From the sequence record PX596819.2: a stretch of 40,621 bases of DNA; one strand, written 5' to 3'. Position numbers and translations under genes: made by a program. Below are positions 16,235-38,030 of this stretch, piece by piece. Numbering within the stretch: position 1 is the first letter of the stretch; the number at the start of each line of letters is the position of its first letter. Under the pieces are notes generated by a model. That model made no database searches. It was not told where the DNA came from and saw only the letters and a list, made by a program, of their open reading frames with translations. The DNA comes from a phage.

Positions 16235-16462
16235 TTAAATCATACTCATTATGACGTATCCTTCAGCAATGTCGCCAACGTCGGAAATGTGGACAACCTT
16301 ACGCGCTACCTGTTGTCCAGTATACCCGTTGTCCCACTCATTCAGGATAAGCCAGTCGCCAACCTTAAAGTCCCGGTCGTTAAGTCTCAGCTCTGCTGTC
16401 TTTAGACCTAGTTGTATCGGACCAAAGTGCTGGCGGTGAATCTTCAGGTTGTGACTAGCCAT
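16235..16462 (-). CDS. DUF3850 / ASCH-like small protein inserted between tail tubular genes
   Basis: 75 aa with the pattern LKIHRQHFGPIQLGLKTAELRLNDRDFKVGDWLILNEWD..GYTGQ..GYVIM, which I recognise as the DUF3850 (ASCH/PUA-like) family signature; T7 has no gene at this position. Confidence 0.55.
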   Translation of the reverse strand: MASHNLKIHRQHFGPIQLGLKTAELRLNDRDFKVGDWLILNEWDNGYTGQQVARKVVHISDVGDIAEGYVIMSMI

Positions 16463-17028
16463 TAGTCCCTCCCGATGTCAGACATCATGTTGTAACGACC
16501 AGTGTCCATCTCGTATTCCATGACCTGCTGATAGAGTTCTGCTTCCTGCTCACGAAGGTACAGTTCAGACTCTGGGCTACCGAAGAACTTAGCGTTGAAC
16601 TCACGGCTAGCCTTTGTAACGATGTAGTCCCTGAAGACCACTGGCATCTCAGAGAATGGTTTCATCTCAACAAGCTCTACCGTTATAGGGTCGGTGAAGG
16701 TGGTTGACTGAGTGGACAGGTCGTACAGGTATCCACCCATGTTGCTATAATAGCTGGTGGCCCCGGCAGTCATTACACGAAGGTATGACGGTAGGAATCG
16801 AATCCTGTTGTCTTTGACATCAGGTGTCAGGATAGCAGCTTCGTTGATGTTAAAGTTCCAGCCTTTAGCTTGGACCTGACGATTGACACGATGCAGGATA
16901 CGCTGAGCGTTCGAGATGTCAGCGTTCCCCTCGTCAAGCTGTAGGACTGCTGGTTCACCGATAGCAGCTAACATATCGTTGATGGCATCTAAATCATCGT
17001 TAGCGTTAAGTGGAATGTATTGAGCCAT
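16462..17028 (-). CDS. gp11: Tail tubular protein A (gp11)
   Basis: 188 aa vs 196 in T7; synteny. Confidence 0.88.
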   Translation of the reverse strand: MAQYIPLNANDDLDAINDMLAAIGEPAVLQLDEGNADISNAQRILHRVNRQVQAKGWNFNINEAAILTPDVKDNRIRFLPSYLRVMTAGATSYYSNMGGYLYDLSTQSTTFTDPITVELVEMKPFSEMPVVFRDYIVTKASREFNAKFFGSPESELYLREQEAELYQQVMEYEMDTGRYNMMSDIGRD

Positions 17029-21994: not shown

Positions 21995-22008
21995 AGTCCC
22001 TCCTACAG

Positions 22009-22281
22009 TTAATCGAACTGAACGGTATCTTTCAGCTCACGACGCATAGCAATCGCAGAGTCGAGAGTGTCCGAGCAATACTGGAGACCCTTGATGAACC
22101 CGGCGATGAACGCATCGCTATAGCCTTGCTGCTTTAGGAGACTGATAACTCCCATCTTCTCAGCGTAGCTTGCGTTGAACAGTACGTGCAGGAACTGGAT
22201 GGCAGACTGGGAGATGTTCGGGACATCAAGTCTTTCTTCCTGTAACTGCTTAACAACGTTTTCAATAGCATTAATCGCCAT
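22009..22281 (-). CDS. gp6.5: gp6.5-like protein
   Basis: 90 aa at the gene 6.5 position, directly downstream of a phage promoter. Confidence 0.6.
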   Translation of the reverse strand: MAINAIENVVKQLQEERLDVPNISQSAIQFLHVLFNASYAEKMGVISLLKQQGYSDAFIAGFIKGLQYCSDTLDSAIAMRRELKDTVQFD

Positions 22282-22342
22282 CTTGAATCTCCTCTTTAAG
22301 TTAAGACTAAAGTCTATCTTATAGTCATATCTTAGGTCCTAA

Positions 22343-22365
22343 AGTCCCTATAGTGATAGTTTAGT
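22343..22365 (-). promoter_or_regulatory. Phage RNAP promoter (phi6.5-like)
   Basis: Consensus match (minus strand ACTAAACTATCACTATAGGGACTTTAGG). Confidence 0.65.
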
Positions 22366-22414
22366 GTTTCACCTATGGATGACTGTTGGATTGATAGGAT
22401 ATGACTATCGGTTA

Positions 22415-22510
22415 GACTCAGTGTTTAGGGCGGTTGTTCGACTCGAACCACTTGTACATGCAGTAAAGGGCTAGAAGTCCGGCCCAGTAAATTACACGGA
22501 TGGTGTCCAC
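22415..22510 (-). CDS. Possible small hydrophobic ORF at the gene 6.3 position (about 31 aa, GTG start)
   Basis: AGGAGGT 6 nt upstream of GTG; overlaps the gene 6 stop; too short for the ORF track. Weak. Confidence 0.25.
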
Positions 22511-23361
22511 AGGATGACCTCCTTGGACTTAGGATCATAGTCAGATGCTCGACAAATACGAGCGACCTGAGCTTGGACCAGAAGTTCCTCCTCGGTCATT
22601 CCAGCTTTAGCAGCAAGAGTCACCATGCAGTCCCATAGCGTCATGTCTTCACGCTTTGGATACTTCTTCCACTCAGTCTTAATCTGGCCTTTGTTCCTAC
22701 CAGTCTTAAGCTCACGGCTCTCCTGCACGAAGTAGTATGGCTCGTCAAGGAATGCACGAGTGGTATCCTCACCCATCCCCGGAATCCCACCGTATCCATC
22801 TGTAGTGTCACCCTTGATGGTCTGCTCCATGTGCCAGTAGTCTGCCTCAGCAGTCGTATGGCTTAGAATTTCACCAGTGGTTAACCAGAAGAACTCACAG
22901 TTCGGGATAGTCTTAAAGTCCTTATCGCAGGACACCAGCACCGCATGGTCACAGCCCACAATCTGAGGTCGTGTCCCGATGATACCCATACAGTCATCAC
23001 CCTCAAGCGTAGGACGCAGGAAGCTGTTGAACCGTGGGTCAGCCATCACTTCTGCTACGAACTTCTTGTACCCTACAGGCTTGCGAGAACCTTTACGGTT
23101 GGCCTTATAGGTAGGAAGAACGTCCTTGCGCCAGTTAGCGTCATCAGTGAAGCACATCACAATCTTAGCGTCTTTCCATGCCTTACGCTTCTTAACGATT
23201 TCAGCGATGGTGTTCTCAAGGATACGACGAGCCTTGGCATGGTCGCAGATAATGGTCCAGATGTCATCACCCCAGTCTGTCTCGTCCTCGGCAGCAGCCA
23301 TAGATGAAAACACTAAGTAGTCACCATCCAGAACAAGAGCTATCTTCTTATTCGAAGTCAT
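22492..23361 (-). CDS. gp6: 5'-3' exonuclease (gp6)
   Basis: Track ORF is 300 aa (to 23394); motifs LVLDGDYLVF, CDHAKAR, PVGYKKF, DKDFKTIPNC, TEWKK resemble T7 gp6. Start placed at the internal ATG that overlaps the upstream stop (ATGA); may extend to 23394. Confidence 0.88.
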   Translation of the reverse strand: MTSNKKIALVLDGDYLVFSSMAAAEDETDWGDDIWTIICDHAKARRILENTIAEIVKKRKAWKDAKIVMCFTDDANWRKDVLPTYKANRKGSRKPVGYKKFVAEVMADPRFNSFLRPTLEGDDCMGIIGTRPQIVGCDHAVLVSCDKDFKTIPNCEFFWLTTGEILSHTTAEADYWHMEQTIKGDTTDGYGGIPGMGEDTTRAFLDEPYYFVQESRELKTGRNKGQIKTEWKKYPKREDMTLWDCMVTLAAKAGMTEEELLVQAQVARICRASDYDPKSKEVILWTPSV

Positions 23362-23486
23362 TCTTTCACCTCCTTGTTGCATTTGAGACACCACCAGTAT
23401 GAGCTACCAGCATATCCCTCCAGCATAGGATGTTGTCCACACTTTTTACACTTTAACCTAGATGCAAATAAACCTTTCAGGCTCAT
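23358..23486 (-). CDS. Small Cys4 zinc-ribbon protein at the gene 5.9 position
   Basis: CKKC-N17-CLKC; the 42-aa form starts at an ATG overlapping the gp5.7 stop and ends overlapping the gp6 start (ATGA at both ends). The track gives a longer 60-aa form to 23540. Confidence 0.45.
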   Translation of the reverse strand: MSLKGLFASRLKCKKCGQHPMLEGYAGSSYWWCLKCNKEVKE

Positions 23487-23692
23487 AGACAGCCTCCGTG
23501 TTGATTCAGGAACTTGGTGCCAGCAGCGGTAATCTCCCACGCACCATTGTTACGCCCATCCATAGACAGGCAGCTTAGATGTCCACGACTCGCAGCCTCA
23601 GCCACAAGTGCAGCGTTGTTGCGCACATAGTTGGACTGGAAGGTCTTCGGGCAGGACTTAAGGGCCGCTAGGACCCGTAAGTATTCACTCAT
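23483..23692 (-). CDS. gp5.7: gp5.7-like protein
   Basis: 69 aa starting MSEYLRVLAALK..FQSNYVRNNAALVAEAASRGH, as I recall for T7 gp5.7; synteny. Confidence 0.7.
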   Translation of the reverse strand: MSEYLRVLAALKSCPKTFQSNYVRNNAALVAEAASRGHLSCLSMDGRNNGAWEITAAGTKFLNQHGGCL

Positions 23693-23973
23693 TGCTTGAC
23701 CTCGAATCGCAGGTTGGACACGCCGAACTGGTGATCATCAAAGGCGTACATCAGCTCCTTCTTGACGTACTTCTTGACGGCAATCTCAATGGCAGACTCA
23801 GGGCCTGACTCGATTGCTGCTTTGACCATGGCAAACTGAAGTCCATCCAGCTTCTCACCCTCAGCGTAGGCTTTAGTAACCTCAGCCAATTGGCGACACA
23901 TGGTCTCTTCTTCTTTTGAGTTGACAACCATCTTCAGGTCGAAACTTACACGAATACGTTTAGTAATAGCCAT
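23689..23973 (-). CDS. gp5.5: gp5.5-like protein
   Basis: Track ORF starts at GTG (23991); I place the start at ATG 23973 (MAITKRIRVSFD), which overlaps the DNA polymerase stop as TAATG. Confidence 0.6.
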   Translation of the reverse strand: MAITKRIRVSFDLKMVVNSKEEETMCRQLAEVTKAYAEGEKLDGLQFAMVKAAIESGPESAIEIAVKKYVKKELMYAFDDHQFGVSNLRFEVKQ

Positions 23974-23975
23974 TA

Positions 23976-24128
23976 GTGACACTCCTTCCACGTTGGTCCA
24001 ATCTTACCTTCGGTATCAAGGACACATTTAAAGTTATAGAACTCACCCACCTTACGCATAGCAAGTTGAGCAATTTCGACTGTACGTTCTGCTATTTCTT
24101 GAGTACGACAAGCAATCTGTAACTCATC
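23976..24128 (-). CDS. gp5: DNA polymerase, 3' exon (C-terminal 51 aa: DELQIACRTQEIAERTVEIAQLAMRKVGEFYNFKCVLDTEGKIGPTWKECH)
   Basis: No start codon or RBS; translation continues the polymerase exactly where the upstream ORF stops, and resembles the T7 DNAP C-terminus (DEIQVGCRTEE...LDTEGKMGPNWAICH). Confidence 0.8.
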
Positions 24129-24728
24129 CTTTCTGTATTCTCCCATTACTGGAAGTGTCGGACTATATCATCAGTCTTTGAGGTGACTGTCTGGCGCTTC
24201 GGGTTACGTGGGAATCTCACCCACGGCCCTACTCCTTTCGGATAGTCTCTACGCCTTCCACTCTCTCTAATCCACCCACAGGCGGCTGAGAACGACACAT
24301 TGAATACTTCGGCTAACTTCGTTCCAGTACACCCAGTCTCTACCCAGTAGTCTCGTGCTTCTAGCTTCCTAGCAGCGTATCGCTCTTGGTTTGTCTTGAC
24401 TAAGTGTGAGTCCCGGTCTAATACTTGTAGATGTTCGACGTTGCAGCAAGCTCTATTATGACACTTGTGGTCTACTTCGAAACCTTCAGGTATTGGACCA
24501 TTAGCTTTAGTCCATAAAGTTCTATGATACATCTCTAGGACACCGTTAGTCCTCTTTCGGAAGTATCCATCCTGATTCAATTTATGTGACGTAGGGATTA
24601 TGCAGCCAGTCTCAGTGGCCTCAAGAATTAACTTCTTGCCTCTCATACATCCTCCCTATGGCTTGGCTCGGTATTGTCCCATTAGGAGTTCACCGAGTTC
24701 ACCAGATTTAATGTGCACCATGATGTTA
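24129..24728 (-). mobile_element. Intervening sequence (about 600 nt) in the DNA polymerase gene: putative group I intron carrying an HNH homing endonuclease ORF
   Basis: Polymerase reading frame is interrupted after ..AYMAWVH by an in-frame TAA and resumes at DELQ.. 600 nt downstream; the upstream exon ends in T and the insert ends in G (AAAG|GAT), as at group I intron boundaries; the insert encodes an HNH protein. Confidence 0.7.
24146..24646 (-). CDS. HNH homing endonuclease encoded inside the polymerase intervening sequence
   Basis: 166 aa with HNH motif EVDHKCHNRACCNVEHLQV and the upstream GYFRKR..YHRTLW..GPIP pattern typical of phage HNH endonucleases. Confidence 0.8.
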   Translation of the reverse strand: MRGKKLILEATETGCIIPTSHKLNQDGYFRKRTNGVLEMYHRTLWTKANGPIPEGFEVDHKCHNRACCNVEHLQVLDRDSHLVKTNQERYAARKLEARDYWVETGCTGTKLAEVFNVSFSAACGWIRESGRRRDYPKGVGPWVRFPRNPKRQTVTSKTDDIVRHFQ

Positions 24729-26744
24729 ATGCACCCATGCCATGTACGCGAAGTCTCCTTCCCAGCCGTGTACATACCCGGCCTCTTCGAGCATACGTTC
24801 AGTCTCAACAATCCAGTGCTTACAGACTACCGCACCATCACCTTGAAGTAAGGCGTTCAGTGCTGAGTGTGGAGACCGGATGTGAATGCGGCGACCGTCA
24901 AGTCCACGCAGCCAACGGCGTTTCCACTTAACGATGTTCTCTCCGTCAACCCACTTAGAGTCTGAGATTAACGTACTACTCACAGCTTCCCTGAGGTCCT
25001 TGATGGCTGGTGTACCCTCAATGAATTTCTTCATGAGAGCTGAACCTTCCTTCTTACCACCTCCTACTATCAGTCCAATCTTAGCGGCCCCTGCGCCATA
25101 CAGGAACGCATAGATGAACGTCTTAGCGTTGTTACGGAAAGCATCATGGTCGTGGTTAGACTTATCGCGTGGGACGTTAGGTGCTAACCCAGCGTTGACT
25201 GCGTTGGCCCAGTGGATGTCACCTTCGACCACAGTCTTCGCATAGTCACCACCATCAAACGGAGCCGCTCTGTTCCCCAGACAACGAAGCTCAAGACCTG
25301 AGGCATCCACACCTACTTGAATCCAAGGGTCTGGATTACCGTCCTTCTTGTTCCATGCTGCACCGAAAGCACCACGGCAAGTCTCACCATATGGAGCACC
25401 GTTAGCAGGGACCTGAGCCATGTTTGGTGAACTATGAGTAGCACGTCCGGTTACTGCCCCGCATGGGTTGATTGAACCATGCATACGTCCGTCTGGACCT
25501 ACAAGTTTCAACCATGCGTTCTTACCTTCAGCCGCCTGACCAATGCGCTTCTGGACTACCAGATACTCACGGACCAGCTCTACGCAAGCCTGAGCCTCTG
25601 CGTCTGGTAACTTAACGTGTTCTAACGTCTCGTCATCGACTACAGGTTTCCCGGTGTCAGTGAAGTCCACAGGCTCCCAACCACGCTCCATCAGAACTTT
25701 CGCTAAGTGGTCTCCGCTTCCCGGATTAAACTCAACGTAAGTGATAGGTGTGAACGGTGCTCCCTCCATCGTGTCTCGTGAGTCGAACTCACAAGGTTCC
25801 AGACCTAAGCGTTGAGCTTTGTTCTTCGGCTTCTTGAATACTGACCCGACCTTAGGATACACGACTCGCGGATACTTCGGAAGGTCCTTGCCTGTCCGTG
25901 GGTGCTTGAAGAACTCCTTGCCACCCTTCGGTGCATACCAGCTACCGAAAGTCGAACGCAGCTTGTCCAGCAGCTCTGCACGTTTGACGGTGAGTTCACG
26001 ATATAAGCCTTCGACCATCTCGGTGTTCATCGGGTAGCCGTTACGTTCCATCTTCGCACAGGTCCACGCAGCATCATGTTCCAGACGCAACGCATAAATC
26101 TGGTCGAAGGCGAACTGTTCAGACTGGAAGTAATACTTGTCAGTCAGGAACTTCTTGAACAACGCCAGTGTGACCACAACGTCTTGAACGTTATAGTCCA
26201 GCATCTCCTGAGACGGTAACAACCATTCGTCCCCAGCCTTATATTCGATACCTTCAGCCTTGCACTTGGCAACGTAATCGTGTTTGTATTCACCTTTCAT
26301 CTCACCAAGACGATAGCCCCAAGCCTCAAGAGACTGACGTCCCATCATCTTAGGTGGCAGACGACCAGCTTTCACCGCGCCCATGTCTGAGAACTTAATG
26401 TTTGGATACATCAAGCGCCCCAGCACCAAGGTATCAATCATCTTGTGTTTCGGGAAGTTAAAACGTTTCCCAAAGTACAGACGTTTCAGCTTGTCAATAG
26501 CAGGGACGTCATAGTTTATACCATTATGGAAGACAAGCATACCATCAGGTGATGCGGCAATCTCTTCCACTTTATGCACATACTCTTTGAAGCCACCGAC
26601 GATACCGACCATCGGAGCTACCCCATACTTAATGGTCTCATTCGACTCGGCGTTAATCAGGACCCCGCAGTGGAACTGGGAGACTGTATCAAGGAGACCG
26701 TTTGTCTCGATGTCAGAACACCAGATACTCTTAAGGTCAAACAT
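24729..26744 (-). CDS. gp5: DNA polymerase (family A, T7 gp5-like), 5' exon
   Basis: Strong resemblance to T7 DNAP throughout (DIETNGLL, FHCGV, MDYNVQDVVVT, KNKAQR, GRATHSSPNMAQVP, DASGLELRC, FAYMAWVH). Start placed at the internal ATG with GGAGGA 6 nt upstream (MFDLKSIW); the track ORF begins earlier at 26780. Confidence 0.93.
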
Positions 26745-26765
26745 GGTTAATCCTCCGTTTAGTCT

Positions 26766-26806
26766 AATCATAAAGGCCACTCGATGTGAATGACCTTGAG
26801 TCTAGA
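26766..26806 (-). other. Conserved hairpin motif (copy 2 of 3), candidate RNase III site (R4.7-like position)
   Basis: Same motif as at 3144 and 34998; lies between genes 4 and 5. Confidence 0.4.
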
Positions 26807-26807
26807 C

Positions 26808-26936
26808 CTAGAAGTCTGTACGCAAGAAGTGGTACATGAACTTACGGTTAGCCTTCTTCCATGCCTTAGAATCGAACCTATGGTCTCCCAGAATGTTGGA
26901 CAGGCAGGTTGCCTCATCGCTCCACCATTTGTACAT
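26808..26936 (-). CDS. Possible small ORF (about 42 aa) between primase-helicase and DNA polymerase
   Basis: ATG-initiated ORF MYKWWSDEATCLSNILGDHRF.. filling the intergenic gap; no clear RBS. Weak. Confidence 0.2.
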   Translation of the reverse strand: MYKWWSDEATCLSNILGDHRFDSKAWKKANRKFMYHFLRTDF

Positions 26937-26983
26937 GAACCGATGGTAGCGAGCTTTAAGTTTTCTTAGCAATGTACTCCTCC

Positions 26984-28687
<1,704 letters not shown>

Positions 28688-28734
28688 TCACTCCTTAATC
28701 ACAAATGCGAACAAAGGGACAGGACTCATGGTCC

Positions 28735-28757
28735 CATCCCTAAAGTGATAGTTTAGG
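28735..28757 (-). promoter_or_regulatory. Phage RNAP promoter variant (phi4-like) with CACTTTAGGG in place of CACTATAGGG
   Basis: Minus strand CCTAAACTATCACTTTAGGGATGGGAC upstream of gene 4; A-to-T change at -2. Confidence 0.5.
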
Positions 28758-28968
28758 CTTTGAAGAACTTAGACAACTGGTCAGCTTTGGTGTCAGCTTG
28801 ACGCGCCTTCATTCCAGCTTCCAGTGAAGCGATGGTCAGCTTGTCAGCCAGAGCAGCAGCATCAGCCGCACCATCAGCAGTCTTCTTTTCTACCTTTCGT
28901 TCCAGTACCGCAGCACGACGATAACCACGCACCACCAGACGACCAAGAAATTCTATGAGTTTAATCAT
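28753..28968 (-). CDS. Hypothetical small protein (gene 3.7/3.8 position)
   Basis: 71 aa ORF between lysozyme and primase-helicase; Ala/Lys-rich. Confidence 0.45.
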   Translation of the reverse strand: MIKLIEFLGRLVVRGYRRAAVLERKVEKKTADGAADAAALADKLTIASLEAGMKARQADTKADQLSKFFKA

Positions 28969-28992
28969 TGAGTTATTCTCCTTTAGAGTTTA

Positions 28993-29463
28993 TTAACCAC
29001 GGTCGGAAGTGACCAGTTCATTGGTAGACAGCCAGCGTTGCAAGTCGAAACTTGGGCACGCCTTAGGTGCTACGTCATGGTGTGCTTTGATTTCTGCCTG
29101 AGGATACAGGACCTTCAGGTCAGCCAGCTTGCTGCGCAGGGAGTTCATCTGGGCTGGAGTGAAGTTAGCTTCAAACTGACCCTTATCGTTGATTCCACCT
29201 ACAAGGCAGACGCCTACGGACTTGGAGTTCCAGTCCTTAACGTGTGACCCTACGACATTGACCGGGCGACCCTCTTCCACAGTACCATCTCGCTTGATGA
29301 TAAAGTGGTAGCCTGCGTCCAGCCATCCCTGCTGCTTGTGCCACATACGGATGGTATCTACCCCGATGTCCATCTCTGGCTTGGTAGCCGAACAGTGAAC
29401 GAAGATAGCGTCAGTTGACTTGCGTGGCATGAATTGTACTTTACTTCCCATTATTATTTCCAC
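28993..29463 (-). CDS. gp3.5: Lysozyme (N-acetylmuramoyl-L-alanine amidase; gp3.5-like, also the likely RNAP inhibitor)
   Basis: 156 aa; DAIFVHCSATKP, GYHFIIKRDGTVEEGR, GVCLVGGI, APKACPSFD, ending NELVTSDRG, all resembling T7 lysozyme. Confidence 0.93.
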   Translation of the reverse strand: MEIIMGSKVQFMPRKSTDAIFVHCSATKPEMDIGVDTIRMWHKQQGWLDAGYHFIIKRDGTVEEGRPVNVVGSHVKDWNSKSVGVCLVGGINDKGQFEANFTPAQMNSLRSKLADLKVLYPQAEIKAHHDVAPKACPSFDLQRWLSTNELVTSDRG

Positions 29464-29495
29464 CTCTTGTGGTTCCTGATTCGACTTATGGTTGT

Positions 29496-29834
29496 CTAAC
29501 TTACTGAGTATTTTTCAGCCATAAACTTAAGGGTCTCGCTTGAGGTGCGAATATCCCTAACGTCCTCTTCAGTTAGTTTTAAATTAAATGTCCTACATAC
29601 TGAGCAGTCCATCATGTTTTCTTCCTGAGTCCCCAGCTCAAGGTGCTCAATGTTTACGCATGCACGGTTATCACACTTGTGTCTTACGACAAGACCTCCC
29701 GGTATAGCACCATTGGTCTCTATCCAAGCGGCTCGATGAGCACCCATAGATTGGCCACGGAATTTACGTCTACCATAGCCATTCTTATTGCGACTATTAG
29801 TCCACTCGATGCAGTCACTTTCCATTGTAAACAA
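29496..29834 (-). CDS. HNH endonuclease (free-standing)
   Basis: CIEW..NGYGRR..AHRAAWIETNGAIPGGLVVRHKCDNRACVNIEHLELGT is a typical phage HNH pattern; C-terminal LTEEDVRDIR segment. Confidence 0.8.
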   Translation of the reverse strand: MFTMESDCIEWTNSRNKNGYGRRKFRGQSMGAHRAAWIETNGAIPGGLVVRHKCDNRACVNIEHLELGTQEENMMDCSVCRTFNLKLTEEDVRDIRTSSETLKFMAEKYSVS

Positions 29835-30288
29835 CTATCTCTACGACCACCAGATTCAGATGTGACTGGAAGCGCTGTGAGTCAGTCGTGTGCATCTGGA
29901 GACGCTTGTGGTTGAAGACGTGTGATTTGCTAATCTTCACGTAAACTTCGTCAGGCTTGCCGTGGACGATGAACGTCTGACCCACACCAATCTTGTCGAT
30001 TGTCAGGACTTCTCGTTTCACTGTCACAGGAGGTACACTCGAAGCTGGCAGGACCTGAGTTTTCTTCTCACCAGTGCGTTTCCCAGCATCAATAAACTTC
30101 AGGCGCTTACCATACATGGCAGTAATCCAACATTTTCCATCACGAGATATATCCCACAGACCTCCATCAGATGGGTTAGTTGTTTTGCATATATGGCGAA
30201 CGAAGACTTCTTGCCCCTCTTCGAAACCACAGCACACGCTTGTGCTCAAGTCGGACAGGTCAACGATTGTTGCTCTACGCGTCATCAC
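29815..30288 (-). CDS. Hypothetical protein (157 aa), lineage-specific insert between endonuclease I and the HNH/lysozyme genes
   Basis: Start abuts the gp3 stop; 20 nt overlap with the downstream HNH ORF; no motif I recognise. Confidence 0.45.
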   Translation of the reverse strand: MMTRRATIVDLSDLSTSVCCGFEEGQEVFVRHICKTTNPSDGGLWDISRDGKCWITAMYGKRLKFIDAGKRTGEKKTQVLPASSVPPVTVKREVLTIDKIGVGQTFIVHGKPDEVYVKISKSHVFNHKRLQMHTTDSQRFQSHLNLVVVEIVVYNGK

Positions 30289-30737
30289 TTAACTCCTTTC
30301 TTCTTGGGAATGAGTATACCTGAAGGCAGATGTACAGTCGCCTCTCGGAGCCACTCAACCGGGATGAACTTATCGGCATACTTAAAGCCGTTCTTTTCGC
30401 ACCATGCGCCATACGTGGTTGGAGACCCTTTGTATAACTTGGAGCGGGAACTTGAGAACACGAACCGAATGTCTAACTCAGGGTGCTGTTCTTTAATCAA
30501 TAAGTGCTTCTTACGGTCTTCCACTGCGAAGATTCCCTTGGTCTCCACAATGATGCCATTTGGTAGCACAAAGTCTGGACAATAGGTATGAAGGGATTGA
30601 GGGATTGTGTACGCTATTTTATACATCTCGTACTCAGCCTTAACCCCGTTCTTCTCCAGCCACTCTTGGTTTTTTGCTTCCAGTCCAGACCGATAGATTC
30701 CTACCGAGTGTCCCCTACTCATGCTACGTGTCGCCAT
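30285..30737 (-). CDS. gp3: Endonuclease I (Holliday junction resolvase, gp3)
   Basis: 150 aa; HTYCPDFVLPNGIIVETKG, DRKKHLLIKEQHPELDIRFVFSSSRSKLYKGSPTTYG resemble T7 gp3. Confidence 0.93.
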   Translation of the reverse strand: MATRSMSRGHSVGIYRSGLEAKNQEWLEKNGVKAEYEMYKIAYTIPQSLHTYCPDFVLPNGIIVETKGIFAVEDRKKHLLIKEQHPELDIRFVFSSSRSKLYKGSPTTYGAWCEKNGFKYADKFIPVEWLREATVHLPSGILIPKKKGVK

Positions 30738-31168
30738 GTTTCTCTCCTTAGTATCTTACCTATTGTTGGCTGAGACACTCCGTAGATTGTAGCGAGTTGT
30801 CGCTGAGTAAGGCTCGAAGACCTAATTTCCTTGACTTTAGTGTCAGTAAGTTTGGACATACCGCACTTCTCTCCCGGAACATGAGGAGGGTTTACACCGC
30901 GCCCCTTGTTACGCATGTCCTGAAGGTTATCCAATTGGGTCCCTACAGTAAGATGCTCAGGGTTACAACACAGCGGAGTATCACAGGTGTGTAACAGAAC
31001 GCCATTAGGTTCTTCACCTGTAATCAGCTCGTAGGCTACGCGATGTGCAAGCATGGTTTTTCCATTGTGCCTAATCTGACCGTAGCCTTTGTTGTTAACG
31101 CAGCCAGTGAAAAGCCAGCAGCTACCTGAAACCACAAGTCGCTGCTTAAGGCTTTCTACTGTAGCCAT
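30719..31168 (-). CDS. HNH endonuclease with C-terminal HTH (free-standing)
   Basis: CWLFTG..NKGYGQI..AHRVAYELITGEEPNGVLLHTCDTPLCCNPEHL; C-terminal LTQRQLATIYGVSQPTIGKI helix-turn-helix. Confidence 0.8.
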   Translation of the reverse strand: MATVESLKQRLVVSGSCWLFTGCVNNKGYGQIRHNGKTMLAHRVAYELITGEEPNGVLLHTCDTPLCCNPEHLTVGTQLDNLQDMRNKGRGVNPPHVPGEKCGMSKLTDTKVKEIRSSSLTQRQLATIYGVSQPTIGKILRRETWRHVA

Positions 31169-31866
31169 TAGAAGTCGTAATCGCCACCAGAGCTGGAGTC
31201 GTCACCACCTTCGGAACCATCGTCACCGAAGTCATCGTCACCGAAGTCACCATCGGTTGACGCTTTGTAACCAGTGCCTAGGTCTTCATCATCACCCCAT
31301 CCACCATCGCCACCAGCACCATCACCTTTCCATTCCTTCAGTTCTACCAGAAGGCAGGACTCAAGCTGGAGCTTAACGCTTGCACCAGTCGCAGCATTCC
31401 ACTTGAACGGCAGGACTTTAAACTTGACCTTCAGCTTAGACCCAGCACCAATATTCGGGACGTCACGGATGAGTTTAGCATCGGTGTCGTAGAACCGTAA
31501 TACGATAGGCTCGGACTTGCCGTCTTTCAGGTAAGACGCAAAGCATTTAAACTTCATGGTAACAGTACCGTCACCATTCTCAATCCACGGCATGTCGCCT
31601 TCTCGTGGTTCAATAGGCTTCTTGCCACGCTGAACCTGAGGTGGGTTCTTCTCGTGGTCTGCGAGTGCTTTCGCATACGCATCGTCGTGAATCTTCTGTA
31701 AGACATCAATCATCTTACGGACCTTCGGGTTGCTCAGGTCGAATGTCAGGTTAACCTTATGCTCACCACGCTCGTTAAACTTGGTGTCTGCTTTGTTCAG
31801 CCATGCGTAAGGCTCAACGATACCAGCTACCGGAGTGGTGAAAGTCTTCAGTTGCTCTTTAGCCAT
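31168..31866 (-). CDS. gp2.5: Single-stranded DNA-binding protein (gp2.5)
   Basis: 232 aa, the same length as T7 gp2.5; acidic C-terminal tail ending in F (..GGDYDF). Confidence 0.93.
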   Translation of the reverse strand: MAKEQLKTFTTPVAGIVEPYAWLNKADTKFNERGEHKVNLTFDLSNPKVRKMIDVLQKIHDDAYAKALADHEKNPPQVQRGKKPIEPREGDMPWIENGDGTVTMKFKCFASYLKDGKSEPIVLRFYDTDAKLIRDVPNIGAGSKLKVKFKVLPFKWNAATGASVKLQLESCLLVELKEWKGDGAGGDGGWGDDEDLGTGYKASTDGDFGDDDFGDDGSEGGDDSSSGGDYDF

Positions 31867-31906
31867 TGGTGTAAATCTCCTAATTTAAAAGTTACGAACT
31901 GGACGT

Positions 31907-31929
31907 CTGTCCTACAGTGATAGTTTAGG
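31907..31929 (-). promoter_or_regulatory. Phage RNAP promoter variant (phi2.5-like) with CACTGTAGG
   Basis: Minus strand CCTAAACTATCACTGTAGGACAGACG upstream of gene 2.5. Confidence 0.5.
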
Positions 31930-32161
31930 TCTCAGGACGAATCCGTCCGACCACAAACCCAGCGTCCTCATACTCTTGGGACTTCAGGGTAGCCTCTTCA
32001 AGAGACTTTGCGTACACCGGAACCTCGAATGACTGAACGCGACCCTCAAGCTCAACGATGTATTTCTTTTCTACGTCAGTCATAGACCGCGCTCCTTCCA
32101 TTGGTTGTATAACGTAATGTAGTCCGGGTTGAGAGTCTTCTCGTACATCTCCCGGCACCAC
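31925..32161 (-). CDS. gp2: Host RNA polymerase inhibitor (Gp2-like)
   Basis: C-terminal part [14 protein letters not shown]...[13 protein letters not shown] resembles T7 Gp2 (SFEVPIYAETLDEA...AGFEVTRVRP); the true start is probably an internal Met. Confidence 0.6.
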
Positions 32162-32170
32162 TCACTCGGT

Positions 32171-32434
32171 TTAAGCATATCGGTTCACCATTACACAGTC
32201 GTCAGAATGGTCATACTCCTCTACCCTAATAATCATACTAGGAGTCTTCATATAAGCAAACGGTAGGAGGTCATAGTCATAATACTCACTGTGTCCTAAT
32301 GAGAACGCTAACATACCCTTACGCAGCGCCTTGTATGATCGGTAAAAACTGAGCGCTCTACGCTTCACCCCTACAGCTTTAAGTTCTTCATGCGTCATAA
32401 CACTTGTCCTTATGTTTCTCGTAAAGTTCACCAT
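32171..32434 (-). CDS. Hypothetical protein (gene 1.8 position)
   Basis: 87 aa ORF between the 1.7-like gene and gene 2; synteny only. Confidence 0.4.
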   Translation of the reverse strand: MVNFTRNIRTSVMTHEELKAVGVKRRALSFYRSYKALRKGMLAFSLGHSEYYDYDLLPFAYMKTPSMIIRVEEYDHSDDCVMVNRYA

Positions 32435-32714
32435 AGAACTCAGCTTTCGCCATGTCCTTCTCCATAGTAGCTAGCTCTGACTTCTTGCCAGCCCGGAGTC
32501 GATACTTCAGGACGTTCCCCATGCAGAACCCACGAAACTCGCTGACAGTCATAGACCGAGCGATAATCTCAATGGACTCAACACCATCAAAGACCTGATA
32601 GTGGGACGGCTTGCGTACACCGTCATCAGCTACAGCAACTGGATGAGGTGTTGAGACGCCGCATCGATAGGCATCATAACGTTCATAGCACGTCTTGCTT
32701 TCGTAGTGTGACAT
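32388..32714 (-). CDS. gp1.7-like protein (DUF3310-type; putative nucleotide kinase)
   Basis: 108 aa with a GNVLKYRLRAGKK segment that I associate with the DUF3310 / T7 gp1.7 family; position between 1.6 and 2. Family assignment is uncertain. Confidence 0.35.
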   Translation of the reverse strand: MSHYESKTCYERYDAYRCGVSTPHPVAVADDGVRKPSHYQVFDGVESIEIIARSMTVSEFRGFCMGNVLKYRLRAGKKSELATMEKDMAKAEFYGELYEKHKDKCYDA

Positions 32715-32968
32715 TAGAATACCTCCTTCACGAACTCAACGAACAGGCGAACGCGAGGCCACTTAGTGTAGACCACAGGTACGTTGGTCTCACGCTTCTG
32801 GCGAGCCTCTTCGGCTTTGCTCGGAGTAATCAGAGCGAATACTGTAGGTGATAACTTAATGGCCTTCCCGAAGTAGCCCAGCTTCTCGTTGCGCTTAATG
32901 CAAGCGAACGGGTTGTTGGAAAGGTGGAAGGTACTGGAATAACGGTTGAACATTAAGTTCTTAGACAT
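32714..32968 (-). CDS. Hypothetical protein (gene 1.6 position)
   Basis: 84 aa, directly downstream of a phage promoter. Confidence 0.45.
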   Translation of the reverse strand: MSKNLMFNRYSSTFHLSNNPFACIKRNEKLGYFGKAIKLSPTVFALITPSKAEEARQKRETNVPVVYTKWPRVRLFVEFVKEVF

Positions 32969-32992
32969 AGCGTCTCCTTAGGTTGTTGGTTG

Positions 32993-33015
32993 TAGTCCTA
33001 TAGTGATAGCTTAGG
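32993..33015 (-). promoter_or_regulatory. Phage RNAP promoter (phi1.6-like)
   Basis: Minus strand CCCTAAGCTATCACTATAGGACTACAACC; G at -12. Confidence 0.55.
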
Positions 33016-33033
33016 GTCTATATGGTGGCCCAG

Positions 33034-33070
33034 ACGCAAAGAAACCCAGCAGTCAGAAGACCACTGGGTT
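33034..33070 (-). terminator. Intrinsic terminator, candidate early terminator (TE-like) for host RNAP
   Basis: Minus strand ACCCAGUGGUC-UUCU-GACUGCUGGGU stem-loop followed by UUCUUUG; lies after the ligase/HNH block and just before the phi1.6 promoter. Confidence 0.5.
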
Positions 33071-33074
33071 GACG

Positions 33075-33536
33075 TTATAATGAATCCCTTAAGGCTACTG
33101 CCTCGGCTATGGTATCGAACGTACCGTATGACTTACGCTTTATCCGCAGTTGCCAGCGACCAGTTGATTTCTGGTATTGAACGTATTTCTCTCCAGATTG
33201 GCAGTGACTACGGGTTGGAACGTTAGTTAGGTTCACCGCCTGAGTCACACACCTGAGGTTCTCAATCCTGTTATCCGAAGGGTCCCGGTTGATATGGTCA
33301 ATCACCATCCCTTCTGGTATAGGACCGTGGGTTAGTTCCCAGACTACTCGGTGGGCCAGCAGTTGGCCCTTTGTCGTACTTAGAATCCAGTACCCATCCT
33401 TTCGTCTATAACCAAGATGTCTACCGTTTAGGTTTGAGACTCCAGAGGGAGCCGCCCTGTCTGCTTTAAATCTTGACCGTAGGGTCGTCCTCAGTTCCAC
33501 GCCACTGGTCGAACGAGGGATGCCGTAGTAAGCCAC
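33075..33536 (-). CDS. HNH endonuclease with AP2-like C-terminal domain (free-standing)
   Basis: AHRVVWELTHGPIPEGMVIDHINRDPSDNRIENLRCVT; C-terminus GRWQLRIKRKSYGTFDTIAEA. The start overlaps the ligase 3' end by about 70 nt, so the true start may be downstream. Confidence 0.75.
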   Translation of the reverse strand: MAYYGIPRSTSGVELRTTLRSRFKADRAAPSGVSNLNGRHLGYRRKDGYWILSTTKGQLLAHRVVWELTHGPIPEGMVIDHINRDPSDNRIENLRCVTQAVNLTNVPTRSHCQSGEKYVQYQKSTGRWQLRIKRKSYGTFDTIAEAVALRDSL

Positions 33537-34515
33537 TTGGTGTCTCCTCCATGTAGGTAATCTGGCAGGCCCAGCCTTTATAATAATCAGGGTCTGACTT
33601 TACGTTCTCTGTGAACTCGGACATTAGGGCGCGACTAATATTAGTTGCGGAGACCTCCATCCCGTTCTCAAGCATAACGTCAAAGCCTATTACCAGTCCT
33701 TCGTTGGTAAGACCTTCTGTTCCCCATATAGGCCGTACAACGTGACCGTCTGCCTCTTCGCTTGGTTTCATCTTGAACATACCTGACTTCTTTCCACGCT
33801 TCCAGCGTCCCAGTGGGTCTTTAACCACCAGACCCTCATGGCCCTCTTCTCTCTTCTTCTCATACAAGTCAGTAAGCTCGTCTAAGCTAAACACTGTATG
33901 ACTCTCAGATAATACCCAGTCGATTTCCGGGAAGTATTTCTGGAGGAGAGGGACGATAGCTTCGGCCTTCAGGCGCGTGACGCTATGGATAGGACCTTCA
34001 GCTTTCTGGTCGAGGATGACGTTGAGGTCTATGATACCGTAGACGATTACCTTGATATGTTCCGGCTTAAGGTTGAACAGCTCCTTGCGGGACTTGCGGT
34101 CTGTTGGCGTCCCACCCACTGCGAACTCGTGGTTCTTGTGGTCTCGGTACTTCGTGCGGATAAGACCTGAGGATGTGTTGAAGTCTACACCCTTGACCAT
34201 CACCTCGCCATCAATCATCAGGCCAGAGACCTCGTGTCCTGCTTGCTTCAGGAACCAGCGCCAGTCATCTGCTCGTGTTACTACACCTTCGTGCTGACGT
34301 GAGGCTGGGTTGCTTAAGTGACTCAATGCTGGAAGCTCTTTAGACTCACGGCTCAACCATTGAGTCTCACCAGTAGGGAAGACCGGAATATTCAACCGGA
34401 CACCATCGTACTTCACTTCAGCTTCCAGCGACCCAGCAGCTTCCAAAGCCTTCTTAACGCCAGACTCAGAGTAATCTACAGCGCGGTGCGGGTTAGTTTT
34501 GATAGTCGTTGTCAT
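33466..34515 (-). CDS. gp1.3: ATP-dependent DNA ligase (gp1.3)
   Basis: 349 aa; IKTNP start, adenylation motif VKYDGVR, GHEGLVVKDP, GWACQITYMEETP, all resembling T7 ligase. Confidence 0.93.
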   Translation of the reverse strand: MTTTIKTNPHRAVDYSESGVKKALEAAGSLEAEVKYDGVRLNIPVFPTGETQWLSRESKELPALSHLSNPASRQHEGVVTRADDWRWFLKQAGHEVSGLMIDGEVMVKGVDFNTSSGLIRTKYRDHKNHEFAVGGTPTDRKSRKELFNLKPEHIKVIVYGIIDLNVILDQKAEGPIHSVTRLKAEAIVPLLQKYFPEIDWVLSESHTVFSLDELTDLYEKKREEGHEGLVVKDPLGRWKRGKKSGMFKMKPSEEADGHVVRPIWGTEGLTNEGLVIGFDVMLENGMEVSATNISRALMSEFTENVKSDPDYYKGWACQITYMEETPSGLLRHPSFDQWRGTEDDPTVKI

Positions 34516-34777
34516 TATGATTTCTCCATGTGTCTAGTTGGTCAGCGAGACCGTTAAGGAAGTCGGTTGCAGTGTTGTACAGTACGTCTTCATCGTGGTG
34601 TGCGAATGTCTCAAGCGCGAAGATGTTACCAGCTCGGTCCTCAACCCTGAGTTTCATGCACTCTTGTCGAGACGCAGGGTCTTGAAACTCCTGAGAAATG
34701 ACAGCTAAGTCTAACTGATAGAGCCTGTTACACGCTGCTTTGAGAGCGTTGAGGTTGCCACTATAAAGTCGGCCCAT
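34493..34777 (-). CDS. gp1.2: gp1.2-like protein (dGTPase inhibitor homolog)
   Basis: Starts MGRLYSGNLNALKAACNRLYQLDLAVI and contains HHDEDVLYN, closely resembling T7 gp1.2. Confidence 0.75.
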   Translation of the reverse strand: MGRLYSGNLNALKAACNRLYQLDLAVISQEFQDPASRQECMKLRVEDRAGNIFALETFAHHDEDVLYNTATDFLNGLADQLDTWRNHNDNDYQN

Positions 34778-34781
34778 AGCG

Positions 34782-35009
34782 TTATGCTCCTACTAAGTAT
34801 TTTTCTCGGTTTACCAGAGAGTCTTTACCTTCAGCGTTACGGAAAGCACCCTTGACACCACCGCCGCGCTTGGTCTTGTTCAGCTTGCGGCCCTTCGGAA
34901 TGTAATATTCAGTCTTCTGACGTTCACGGATGCGCTCGAAGTTGATAGTGTTCTGATACATGTGGTTAAATCTCCAGTAGTTTACGTTAGGATTAATCAT
35001 GAAGGCCAC
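34782..35009 (-). CDS. gp1.1: gp1.1-like small basic protein
   Basis: Contains KGRKLNKTKR as in T7 gp1.1; the track ORF starts at GTG and the true start is probably an internal ATG. Confidence 0.5.
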   Translation of the reverse strand: MAFMINPNVNYWRFNHMYQNTINFERIRERQKTEYYIPKGRKLNKTKRGGGVKGAFRNAEGKDSLVNREKYLVGA

Positions 35010-35131: not shown

Positions 35132-35362
35132 TCATTTGGTTGCCTCTTCCCGTAGGGCCTTCTCGTGTGACCACTGTATTACCTGAATCAGCTCCTTCTG
35201 GCTGATACATTTGGCCTTAGCCGTTCCAGTCGGTACCATAGTCACCTTGACCAGACCTTTACCCGCCACTGTGGTTACGGTAACTACCTTGTTGCCACCA
35301 GATACGTTTGATACACGGTGTGCGAATTGCATGTTGTCTCTCCTGTTGTTAAGCGAATGCAA
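35132..35362 (-). CDS. Hypothetical small protein between gene 1 and the phi1.1 promoter (gene 1.05-like position)
   Basis: 76 aa ORF with TTG start overlapping the RNAP stop by 14 nt; an internal ATG (MQFAHRV..) is also possible. Weak. Confidence 0.3.
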   Translation of the reverse strand: MHSLNNRRDNMQFAHRVSNVSGGNKVVTVTTVAGKGLVKVTMVPTGTAKAKCISQKELIQVIQWSHEKALREEATK

Positions 35363-38030
35363 AGTCTGAAGACAAGATGTCTTCGATATTCAGTTTACCT
35401 TTCTTCGGAAGCTCAGGCAACTTGTCGCGCTGGCTCTCGTGAAGCTGGTACTCGAACTGCTCGTAGAAGTCGAGCAGCACATCGTTGTCGCGGTAGGTCT
35501 CGACCATCGTCTCACGGACACCACGGAACAGATACTCAGCATCAGCAGGAATGGTCCCGAAGCTATCGTGAATAACTGCGAATGACATCACACCATACTT
35601 GCGGTGAGTGTGGACTACAGTCTTGCGGAGGTGGCTGCCATCTTGTGAGTGAACGAAGTTCGGGCTAATGCCTGACTCCTGCTTGTGCTTGTCCAGCTCT
35701 TTCTTCGTGCCTTTATTGACTGTAGGTTGAAGGTTAAATGACCCTAAGAACATCAGGTTCAGACGCGTGGTATCCTTCTTGCGGTATTCCTGCCAGACCG
35801 GGAAACCATCAGGTGTTACCCAGTGTACCGGAAGGCAAGGCTTCAGGATTTCACCAGTTTTCTTGTCCTTCACCTCAGCAGCCAGCAGCTTGGCAGCACC
35901 TTGAAGCCACTTCATCGCGTCTACCGCAGCAACCACGGTCACACTCACAGCCTCCCAGATCATCTTAGCCATGAAGCGAGACGCTTGTCTTGGTTCAGTG
36001 AACATAGCGCCAGACCCTGAGTCAATCGCGGGCATCACGATGTCCTCGTACACTTGGTCTGCGAAGCCATACTCTTTCGACCCGTAGGCCAGAGTCATGA
36101 CCGAACGCTTAGTGACCTTGCGTGACATGCCGTAGGTCAGCCACTGACGGGCCAGCTCTCGTGTCCCCAGCTTGAGACGTTCGGTAATCTCACCAGTTTT
36201 CTTGTCCTCGTGAGTCACCATCTCGTTGTCCGTACCGTTAACCAGCAGGACTTTAAGCTCCTCCTCAATGCGGTCAGACACAATGCGGTAGATGTCTTGG
36301 ACCTTACCGGATGGAGTTAGGTTTACTGCATGTCCACCGATGTGGTCACGAAGCATCGCGCTGAAGTGCTGAATACCAGAGCAGGACCCGTCGAACGCTA
36401 TTGGCAGCGAACATGAGTAAGACAGTCCGTGGTGCATTACGCCAGCATACTCGAAGCAGAACGCTAGGAAGCAGAACGGAGAGTCTAACTTGCCCCACCA
36501 CTCAATGCTATCCATCGGTGCTTTGGCAGCAGCCATGATGTTGTCGTGGTTGTCTTCCACCCACTTGATGCGCTCCTCGAAGGTGACTTTATCGACACCC
36601 GCACAGTTTGCACCGTGGACCTTCAGCCATTTGAAACCATCAGCACCAATAGGCTTACCGACTGCCAGAGTCAGTAGACCCTTCTGCATGTCGTTACCCT
36701 GAGGGTTGAACATCGGCACAGCGTAGACGCGACCGCGCCAGTCCATGTTGTACGGGAACCAGATGGCCTTGAACTGAGAGAACTTGTTCGCTTGGTTGAC
36801 GATAAAGCTCAATGATAATCTGCGTGACTGTCTGGCCTTCTCGCGGCGATAGATGCCAGCAGCAGCCTTCTTCCACGCCTTGAGGTCCTCTTCAGTCTCT
36901 CCCACATAGTCTTCAGGCTTCAGTGGTTCCATCTGAGGGATGTCGTCAATAGGCGTGTTGTTCAGCTTCTCGACCATGTTCACTACGTCCAGCACCTTCT
37001 TGTTCACTTTCCAAGGTGTATTCTGGATGATGTTCACAGCGTCATAGACTTCAGGCATGTACACGTCTTCGTAACGTGCTACCGCAGACTTAGACCCTAA
37101 GCGAATCAATGGTAACGGTCTGCGACCTTTGGCCCAGTAACCACCGCCTACGACACCCGTCCACGGCTTAGGTGGAACGACGCACGGTTGGTAGACTGGC
37201 GCGATACCTGCAAGGCTGAAGCCACGTTGCGCCATCTTCTTGACCCAGAAGTCTGACAGGTGGACCATCTCAACATCAGCCGCTGCATTGCCAGCACCAT
37301 AACGCTTAAGCTCGACCAGTTGTGTAGACTGTATGACAATCTCAAGCATCTTGATGCCGACGTGTACCGCTTCTGTAGGACTCCAAGTACCCCACGCATC
37401 TTCCAGTTGGCCTTGCTCCAGCATGGAGGTCTCAACCGCTTGCATGTAGGCTTTCTTGTAGGATACCCCTGCTCGCTTGTTCAGGTTCTCAGCAATCGCC
37501 TTCTTGAAGTGCTCCTGCTCCTTATCACGGATGCGGCCGAAGCGGATTTCATCTTCCAGTGTGCGACCTATCGCGGATGCCATAGGAGTTATCGGAATGC
37601 CTTCAGGCTTGACCAGCTTGCTGAGGATGACTTTCAGTATGATGATCGCAGCAGACTCCGCAGAGATTAGCAGAGAGCGGTCTTTTACAGCCTTCTCGTC
37701 AGTGCTCAGCATGGTAAACGCTACGCTTGGACGCGAGGTCGATGACTTACCGTCCGGGCCTTCATGCCACTCACGGAAAGCCTTAGCGATGGTCGGAACC
37801 AGCGTTTGCATCAAAGGTTTGGCGACCTGATTGTCTGCCAGTTCCCCTCGCTCGGTCTGGCGCTCAAGGTTCTTGATGAAACGTCGCTCGCCTTCAGTGT
37901 ATGCCTCATGCTCAAGCTGAAGCTGTTTGACTGCAAGGTCTTGCCCGTAGTGGTTGGCCAGCAGGTTAAACGGCTCAATGGCGTTCGACACATCAGAGAA
38001 GTCGTGTTTGTCAATAGAGATGACGCTCAT
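35349..38030 (-). CDS. gp1: Single-subunit DNA-directed RNA polymerase (T7 gp1-like)
   Basis: 893 aa vs 883 in T7; ends ..DFAFA like T7 RNAP; AAGGA 8 nt upstream of the ATG. Confidence 0.97.
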   Translation of the reverse strand: MSVISIDKHDFSDVSNAIEPFNLLANHYGQDLAVKQLQLEHEAYTEGERRFIKNLERQTERGELADNQVAKPLMQTLVPTIAKAFREWHEGPDGKSSTSRPSVAFTMLSTDEKAVKDRSLLISAESAAIIILKVILSKLVKPEGIPITPMASAIGRTLEDEIRFGRIRDKEQEHFKKAIAENLNKRAGVSYKKAYMQAVETSMLEQGQLEDAWGTWSPTEAVHVGIKMLEIVIQSTQLVELKRYGAGNAAADVEMVHLSDFWVKKMAQRGFSLAGIAPVYQPCVVPPKPWTGVVGGGYWAKGRRPLPLIRLGSKSAVARYEDVYMPEVYDAVNIIQNTPWKVNKKVLDVVNMVEKLNNTPIDDIPQMEPLKPEDYVGETEEDLKAWKKAAAGIYRREKARQSRRLSLSFIVNQANKFSQFKAIWFPYNMDWRGRVYAVPMFNPQGNDMQKGLLTLAVGKPIGADGFKWLKVHGANCAGVDKVTFEERIKWVEDNHDNIMAAAKAPMDSIEWWGKLDSPFCFLAFCFEYAGVMHHGLSYSCSLPIAFDGSCSGIQHFSAMLRDHIGGHAVNLTPSGKVQDIYRIVSDRIEEELKVLLVNGTDNEMVTHEDKKTGEITERLKLGTRELARQWLTYGMSRKVTKRSVMTLAYGSKEYGFADQVYEDIVMPAIDSGSGAMFTEPRQASRFMAKMIWEAVSVTVVAAVDAMKWLQGAAKLLAAEVKDKKTGEILKPCLPVHWVTPDGFPVWQEYRKKDTTRLNLMFLGSFNLQPTVNKGTKKELDKHKQESGISPNFVHSQDGSHLRKTVVHTHRKYGVMSFAVIHDSFGTIPADAEYLFRGVRETMVETYRDNDVLLDFYEQFEYQLHESQRDKLPELPKKGKLNIEDILSSDFAFA

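Follow-up and report, generated by a model that had tools for sequence, protein, structure and literature searches.

Three free-standing HNH endonuclease genes and a predicted HNH-encoding group I intron in a K1F-like phage genome

The window analysed here, sequence record PX596819.2 at its full length of 40,621 nucleotides (nt), is the complete genome of a Kayfunavirus, a K1F-like phage of the T7 family whose genes lie on the minus strand. It carries four open reading frames (ORFs) for HNH endonucleases, and we consider it very probable that these represent four independent selfish elements: three free-standing genes at gene junctions, designated HNH1, HNH2 and HNH3, and a fourth, HNH4, housed in a self-splicing group IA2 intron of the DNA polymerase gene. 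The feature is real but ordinary: known elements occur in a new combination, and at least one of them is probably dead. Along the minus strand the gene order is RNA polymerase (35349-38030), ligase, SSB, endonuclease I, lysozyme, primase/helicase, DNA polymerase, exonuclease and structural genes.

A first-pass annotation of this DNA had located the four ORFs on the minus strand, and all of them hold up at its coordinates. Each exceeds the cutoff of Pfam HNH_3 (PF13392; 24.8 bits), with scores of 79.5 bits for HNH1 (1.4e-22), 38.0 bits for HNH2 (1.2e-9), 60.7 bits for HNH3 (1.1e-16) and 56.5 bits for HNH4 (2.1e-15), and PHROG HNH endonuclease families match the ORFs at 1e-28 to 1e-45. The same annotation counted four free-standing genes plus one intronic, and here it was one too high: a six-frame hmmsearch based on a profile of all four had no other match better than E~1, and Pfam and PHROG scans of 26 further ORFs in the window revealed no additional HNH and no other homing-endonuclease domain, leaving three free-standing genes and one in the intron. 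HNH2, HNH3 and HNH4 share a Cys-rich pattern, H-x-C...C-x-N-x-x-H-L...N/H, which in HNH3 and HNH4 reads H-K-C-x-N-R-A-C-x-N-x-E-H-L. Their mutual identity is 36-37%, and they are therefore no recent duplicates of one another. The catalytic His (general base), the Asn and the metal-ligand Asn/His are present in all four ORFs. Degenerate motifs or pseudogenes had been named as findings that would speak against working HNH genes; the motifs proved intact, and pseudogene status applies in part, to a nonsense codon in HNH3, a frameshift in HNH4 and the lack of a post-ligase ATG in HNH1.

To place the elements among related genomes, we searched a phage database of 50,697 records for copies of the HNH genes and the intron. 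Megablast of positions 22000-35000 matched 311 related phage records, the best of which were Kayfunavirus phages with 92-94% identity and a coverage of only 75-83%, since each relative lacks some of the inserts. The comparison with HNH-minus relatives that had been proposed could be made: K1F is without the three free-standing genes, and the polymerase gene of PH1061 is intron-less. Aligned with K1F, the window shows three clean insertions, at 33077-33470, 30716-31163 and 29453-29816, with the short repeats TAA, TAATGGC and ATGGnAAGT, respectively, at the insert ends. The HNH-less junction sequences are identical in K1F, PH1061 and SR04 and are split or rewritten in carriers. They are, in our reading of the alignments, the most likely target sites.

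Each free-standing gene shows presence/absence polymorphism at a single locus, with 10, 4 and 3 carriers, respectively, among the 311 related records. HNH1 is found at 97-99% identity in SR04, EFA-1, CHRF_30111, PH1061 and Zappy, and at 83% in five records that correspond to four phages (PE3-1, which appears twice, JSS1, vB_EclP_26 and phiHAO1-1). HNH2 has copies of 92-93% in HC13, UFJF_EcSW4, Emlis and Midid, and HNH3 has copies of 96% in PH1061, ZH4 and SD6, together with a remnant in ZG49. Location at the same junction was confirmed for HNH1 in PH1061 and JSS1, for HNH2 in HC13, and for HNH3 in PH1061, ZH4 and SD6. Among the records found by these DNA searches, PH1061 is the only carrier of two of the four elements, and no genome carries all four.

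Sequences next to two of the genes vary together with their presence. For the 3′ half of ligase, the five best matches to the window (94-96%) are exactly the five close carriers of HNH1, and most relatives fall at 80-90%. In 200-nt windows across 33500-33900, identity is 92.5-98% to PH1061 and SR04 versus 80-89.5% to K1F; HC13, which has no HNH1, matches the window ligase at 66.5%, in the 33700 window only. In all, about 400 nt at the 3′ end of ligase co-vary with HNH1. On the HNH2 side, the 5′ end of endonuclease I (30500-30700) is 84.5% identical to the carrier HC13 versus 69-72.5% to three non-carriers. For HNH3 the difference in the lysozyme-side flank is small, and the other flank shows no co-variation. 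The homing invasion suggested by the first-pass annotation is supported for the free-standing genes by sporadic carriers and identical junctions, and for HNH1 and HNH2, weakly for HNH3, by flank co-variation. Such co-variation, weak as it is in the last case, is what homing with co-conversion would predict. It also fits a report that homing endonuclease genes cluster beside essential genes and mark the boundaries of recombination and genetic exchange (PMC10448857).

HNH2 (30719-31168, minus strand) is predicted to encode a 149-aa (amino acid) Cys-rich HNH protein, with a catalytic region of H60...C62,C67,C68,N69,H72...N81 and a C-terminal helix-turn-helix (HTH); the C-terminal fragment of the protein matches HTH_psq at 21.9 bits. 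A sequence search of the PDB with HNH2 gave nothing significant. The gene was inserted where the stop of SSB overlaps the start of endonuclease I (TAATGGC); its ATG takes over the TAATG, and its last 19 nt overlap the start of endonuclease I (30285-30737, minus strand). The last HNH2 codons (...CTAAGGAGAGAAACATGGC) provide endonuclease I with a new Shine-Dalgarno (SD) sequence, TAAGGAG, and a new ATG. Junction alignments show that the SSB end is unchanged in carriers and that the first ~55 nt of endonuclease I differ from HNH-less alleles, having been rewritten (MATRSMSRGHSVGIY vs MAQWSAKRGHSVGAY). The HC13 homologue (URY99500), also 149 aa long, lies at the same site and has 96.6% aa identity by tblastn; taken together, the copies in HC13, UFJF_EcSW4, Emlis and Midid share the junction and the length, are 95-97% identical in protein and differ in no notable way. 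More distant homologues, of ~47% identity, seem to use the same site: at least one further phage, Klebsiella NahiliMali, has such a gene between SSB and endonuclease I, and annotation suggests a homologue there in Salmonella BSP161, PC127 and PC192. T7 gp7.7 belongs to the same family (46-48% identical to HNH2 over its full length), but its genomic niche is different. Of the four window copies, HNH2 is the only one that looks fully intact.

HNH3 (29496-29825, minus strand) specifies a free-standing Cys-rich HNH protein of 109 aa, or 112 aa if read from TTG 29834. It had been described as lying between endonuclease I and lysozyme; the other junctions were placed correctly, but here a 157-aa ORF of unassigned function (29815-30288, minus strand) separates endonuclease I from HNH3, whose ATG at 29825 overlaps the end of that ORF by 11 nt. 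The insertion occurred at the ATGGnAAGT of the lysozyme start (left junction ATGGAAAGT, right junction ATGGGAAGT, K1F ATGGTAAGT). A TAG at 29498-29496 ends the window copy, as compared with an intact form of 123 aa in PH1061 and SD6; position 29498 is T in the window and G in PH1061, SD6 and ZH4, a window-specific change from GAG to TAG. In alignment, the missing residues, ETTISRIRNHKRWK, fall on the recognition helix of HNH2's HTH, and without its DNA-recognition helix HNH3 is probably inactive. The former 3′ end of the gene (29452-29495, minus strand) is now untranslated and keeps the lysozyme SD, AAGAGGTGG, which lies within the last codons of the HNH3 element, upstream of the lysozyme ATG at 29451. 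No AP2-like or other Pfam domain was found in the C-terminus of the intact form.

Other copies of HNH3 are also damaged. The one in ZH4 has its own, independent 1-nt frameshift, and in ZG49 only the last ~105 nt of the element are left, inside a local duplication; the element is therefore decaying in nature. At this locus in ZG49 (492-905) a chimeric ORF joins the N-terminal 40 aa of lysozyme to a C-terminal segment of endonuclease I, and the ~105-nt HNH3 end is present twice. The arrangement has the look of a scar left by recombination at this homing site. As to the adjoining 157-aa ORF, its N-terminal half (30069-30281) has no match in the four relatives compared, and only its C-terminal half matches PHROG 16385/15211, families of unknown function.

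HNH1 (33075-33536, minus strand) would encode a free-standing protein of the HNN type, 153 aa long if GTG 33536 is its start. It resembles I-HmuI, the intron-encoded nicking HNH enzyme of Bacillus phage SPO1 (PDB 1U3E; E=8.6e-4), and shares its D-H...N...N pattern, with D80, H81, N93 and N102 corresponding to I-HmuI D74, H75, N87 and N96. HNH1 differs in being free-standing and in its C-terminal region, where a Pfam scan found no AP2-like or other domain. The insert lies between the ligase stop (TAA 33468-33466) and a conserved hairpin, CAACCCAGTGG...CTGCTGGGTT, with a TAA at each end. Directly after the ligase stop PH1061 has an ATG; at this codon (33455-33453) the window, SR04 and CHRF_30111 have GCG and JSS1 has ACG. 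In all copies compared, the HNH1 frame is open upstream to a start 71 nt inside ligase (33466-34515, minus strand), GTG in the window and ATG in JSS1, preceded by the SD GGAGGAG. It is plausible from these alignments that HNH1 genes without the PH1061-type ATG must start inside ligase, in the window at the GTG; with this start the gene shares 71 nt with the 3′ end of ligase. A frameshift fusion of ligase with HNH1 was considered as well; nothing in the analysis, which did not pursue this reading, speaks for it. Directly 3′ of HNH1 (32990-33075), a GC-rich hairpin followed by T's (CAACCCAGTGG...CTGCTGGGTTTCTTTG) adjoins the phage-promoter-like sequence CTATCACTATAGGA, and the ligase transcription unit therefore closes with HNH1.

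The first-pass annotation had drawn attention to HNH genes overlapping the ends of essential genes. The overlaps (71, 19 and 11 nt) are real, but the description fits ligase poorly: in T7, ligase is not an essential gene.

The remaining element interrupts the DNA polymerase gene. Removal of 24129-24728 (600 nt, minus strand) joins exon 1 (24729-26780, ending ...AYMAWVH, start probably at an ATG near 26744) to exon 2 (23973-24128, DELQIACRT...KECH*) in a continuous 735-aa polymerase, ...AWVH|DELQ..., collinear with the intron-less PH1061 allele. The insertion splits the VH|DE motif, and we take the H|D junction to be Pol I site 881 from the mapping of residues H881/D882. The last base of the 5′ exon is U (CAU|), paired with G in P1, and the last base of the intron is G. 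A default whole-window Rfam scan returned nothing; a relaxed scan matched RF00028, with the full model (1-253) aligned at 35.5 bits (E=3.6e-7), short of the gathering score of 50, and with the HNH ORF as a single large insert in the region of P6. The structure drawn by hand contains P1, P3, P4, P5, P7, P7.1, P7.2, P8 and P9, with P7.1 and P7.2 joined by GUA, an IA2 signature (PMC3428280). When its 51 assigned pairs were examined in five sequences (the window, K1F, 13a, CHRF_10037 and Sal_R1S), all 255 pair-cells were standard and four pairs, in P1, P5, P7.2 and P9, were compensatory, as compared with 38-48% pairing and zero compensatory pairs in shifted controls; with five sequences from about two lineages, and a structure drawn from those same sequences, this is supportive rather than conclusive. 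Taking the exon boundaries, model alignment and predicted structure together, we regard the insertion as a genuine group IA2 intron.

Introns of this kind are well represented. In 40 phage records the identity is ~98% in K1F-type phages and ~80% in Teseptimavirus (13a, for example); the RNA core hardly varies, and the ORF diverges to ~75%. The PhiI and W31 polymerase introns, which encode I-TslI, were reportedly shown by Bonocora and Shub in 2004 to self-splice, and by analogy the window intron would do the same. They are of the same type, being IA2 introns at Pol I site 881 with an HNH ORF in P6a (PMC3428280). The closest known system is that of K1F itself, for which a putative group I intron carrying a homing endonuclease has been described (PMC4925675). 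The K1F intron and its HNH ORF (gp5.3; NC_007456 CKV1F_gp19A/B) are 98.3% identical in DNA to the window across the whole intron, with the same insertion point, ORF position and GUA link, and in the records of both K1F and 13a the polymerase is entered as a join, with an HNH inside it.

The two introns differ in the ORF. HNH4 (24146-24646, minus strand, 166 aa) has (AG)4 at 24268-24261, versus (AG)3 in K1F, 13a, CHRF_10037 and Sal_R1S, a +2 frameshift specific to the window. In all four relatives aligned, the normal 131-aa ORF ends ...IREWKA* at a TAG (24251-24249) just 5′ of P7; in the window its last three residues are replaced by a 38-aa tail read through the P7-P9 core. The frameshifted ORF ends in TAATG (24144-24148), whose ATG is in frame with exon 2 (MGEYRK|DELQ...). 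The overlap is probably coincidental, because the motif forms the P9 loop and 13a reads ATA at that place. The N-terminal ~90 aa of HNH4 are 47% identical to an ORF annotated as a homing endonuclease in T3 (15188-15472), presumably gene 5.3, next to the polymerase gene; the T3 ORF is free-standing and occupies a different niche. Unrelated phages, Aeromonas MQM1 among them (60% aa identity), also have related intron HNHs in their polymerase genes, and ECBP2 has a 54% homologue annotated simply as a homing endonuclease. T7 gp5.3 was also considered as an HNH-type relative of HNH4, and this was rejected (BLASTP E=3.5).

We suggest that these observations can be accommodated by a homing cycle. Free-standing nuclease genes would have settled at the ligase/terminator, SSB/endonuclease I and 157-aa ORF/lysozyme junctions, and a fourth in P6 of the polymerase intron. 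During mixed infection, by analogy with T4 Seg/Mob, I-HmuI and I-TslI, each nuclease would nick or cut an HNH-less allele near its junction, and repair from the carrier genome would copy in the HNH gene together with a few hundred flanking bases. HNH2 and HNH3 take over the upstream stop/start coupling and supply a new SD and ATG to the displaced downstream gene, and the intron would avoid harm through splicing. The four copies may then stand at different stages of the homing life cycle, with HNH2 apparently intact, HNH3 ended by a nonsense codon, HNH4 frameshifted and HNH1 dependent on its GTG. A parallel is found in the free-standing T4 Seg/Mob nucleases, whose intron-less homing is accompanied by co-conversion and which likewise show intergenic insertion beside conserved replication genes, a scattered occurrence and co-inherited flanking markers; the nuclease families are partly others (GIY-YIG in Seg).

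Several considerations weigh against this reading, in addition to the sub-threshold Rfam score and the narrow sampling behind the covariation test. Flank co-variation could reflect shared descent or ordinary mosaic recombination. Cleavage and homing by these enzymes, like splicing of the intron, are what we infer from the analogous systems, and the target sites are candidates. Translation of HNH1 from GTG 33536 is unproven and its expression putative, and all three lesions could be errors of sequencing or assembly. If the last point is pressed, the HNH3 TAG, the additional AG of HNH4 and the GCG of HNH1 would be errors or harmless variants, and all four endonucleases would be intact and active. 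The HNH3 and HNH4 changes are indeed unique to the window among three to four close copies each, as an error would look, and the HNH1 GCG is common to SR04 and CHRF_30111, which together with ACG and an upstream ATG in JSS1 implies that an upstream start may be normal. Against this, natural decay of the HNH3 element is seen in ZH4 and ZG49, and neither a dinucleotide insertion nor a G-to-T substitution is typical of systematic errors. We judge this account unlikely.

It is less likely still that the HNH genes are kept for the benefit of the phage, in degrading or excluding co-infecting relatives or in DNA processing, rather than being mobile parasites. By position they belong to the DNA-metabolism module, with which they are co-oriented and translationally coupled, and endonucleases, both intron-encoded and free-standing, can give flanking markers a competitive advantage, according to the statement in PMC3428280 that cites Goodrich-Blair and Shub 1996. 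Most close relatives nonetheless do without each gene, which argues that none is needed; copies decay in the window, ZH4 and ZG49; and exclusion is compatible with homing, making it an added effect more than an alternative. As for the polymerase insertion, it is hardly credible that it is no splicing intron and that a free-standing HNH gene has split the polymerase into two separately translated fragments. The in-frame ATG at 24146 that overlaps the HNH4 stop and the failure to reach the Rfam gathering threshold speak for such an arrangement. Against it, the catalytic VHDE is broken between H and D, both boundaries (U| and G|) are canonical, the insertion aligns with the Rfam model over its full length, all 51 core pairs are kept with four compensatory changes, 13a retains the element with ATA in place of that ATG, and the PhiI and W31 insertions at the equivalent site are group I introns (PMC3428280). 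The reading that we prefer remains that of four independent selfish elements, one of them in an intron.

On the same reading, the way in which HNH2 and HNH3 are joined to their neighbours raises a further idea, which is possible, although we would put it forward only tentatively. The last codons of each element supply the SD and start context of a downstream replication or lysis gene, and this could make the elements hard to delete. If so, a dead HNH3, or the bare remnant in ZG49, would be kept as the translation-initiation region of the downstream gene, an addiction that might be termed ribosome-binding site ('RBS') capture, and such capture would shape the decay of homing endonuclease genes in T7-like phages.

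The four elements sum to ~1.8 kb, or 4.4% of the genome. The first-pass annotation had pointed to a high density of HNH genes, which by comparison with relatives is not unusual for the genus: PH1061 has three HNH_3 ORFs within the same module, and HC13 has three nuclease ORFs there. The PH1061 proteins WKV16783 and WKV16791 represent the same elements as HNH1 (97% in DNA) and HNH3 (96%) at the same junctions, and differ from the window copies in having the ATG right after the ligase stop and the intact 123-aa HNH3. By these comparisons, four nuclease elements are at the high end for the genus, an instance of the same phenomenon as in relatives and not exceptional in density. In HC13, an Endonuclease VII-family ORF (4885-5316) overlaps the polymerase start and a PD-(D/E)XK ORF (2333-2749) overlaps its end, so that different nuclease families occur at other module junctions.

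The phenomenon is already known and matters little beyond annotation. For annotation, the DNA polymerase should be recorded as spliced, with two exons, and the label of HNH homing endonuclease gene belongs on three small ORFs, one of them truncated. The window also offers a snapshot of the homing life cycle in a genus that is used for therapy of K1 E. coli, in which an intact copy stands beside a debatable, a frameshifted and a nonsense-truncated one; its mapped junctions are concrete candidate target sites for characterising these enzymes; and it is an example of homing endonuclease genes as markers of mosaic boundaries in the replication modules of T7-like phages.

Three further places in the genome are occupied by small ORFs. 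In the structural module, an accessory gene of 75 aa with an ASCH/DUF3850 domain (16235-16462, minus strand; Pfam 7.9e-20) lies between ORFs 16462-17028 and 13868-16225, which by position should be tail tubular gp11 and gp12. Between gene 5.7 and exonuclease, ~130 nt (23350-23481) that are absent from K1F, PH1061, SR04 and HC13 make a 60-aa ORF (23358-23540, minus strand) with two CxxC pairs, zinc-ribbon-like, and no Pfam or PHROG match; SR04 has a different ORF, of 149 aa, at this spot, which marks it as a variable niche. Finally, 32171-32714 contains a DUF3310 ORF (32388-32714) and an 87-aa ORF without matches where K1F has the gene 1.7 nucleotide kinase, and the fall in identity to relatives across this segment, to 70-85%, suggests a module swap.

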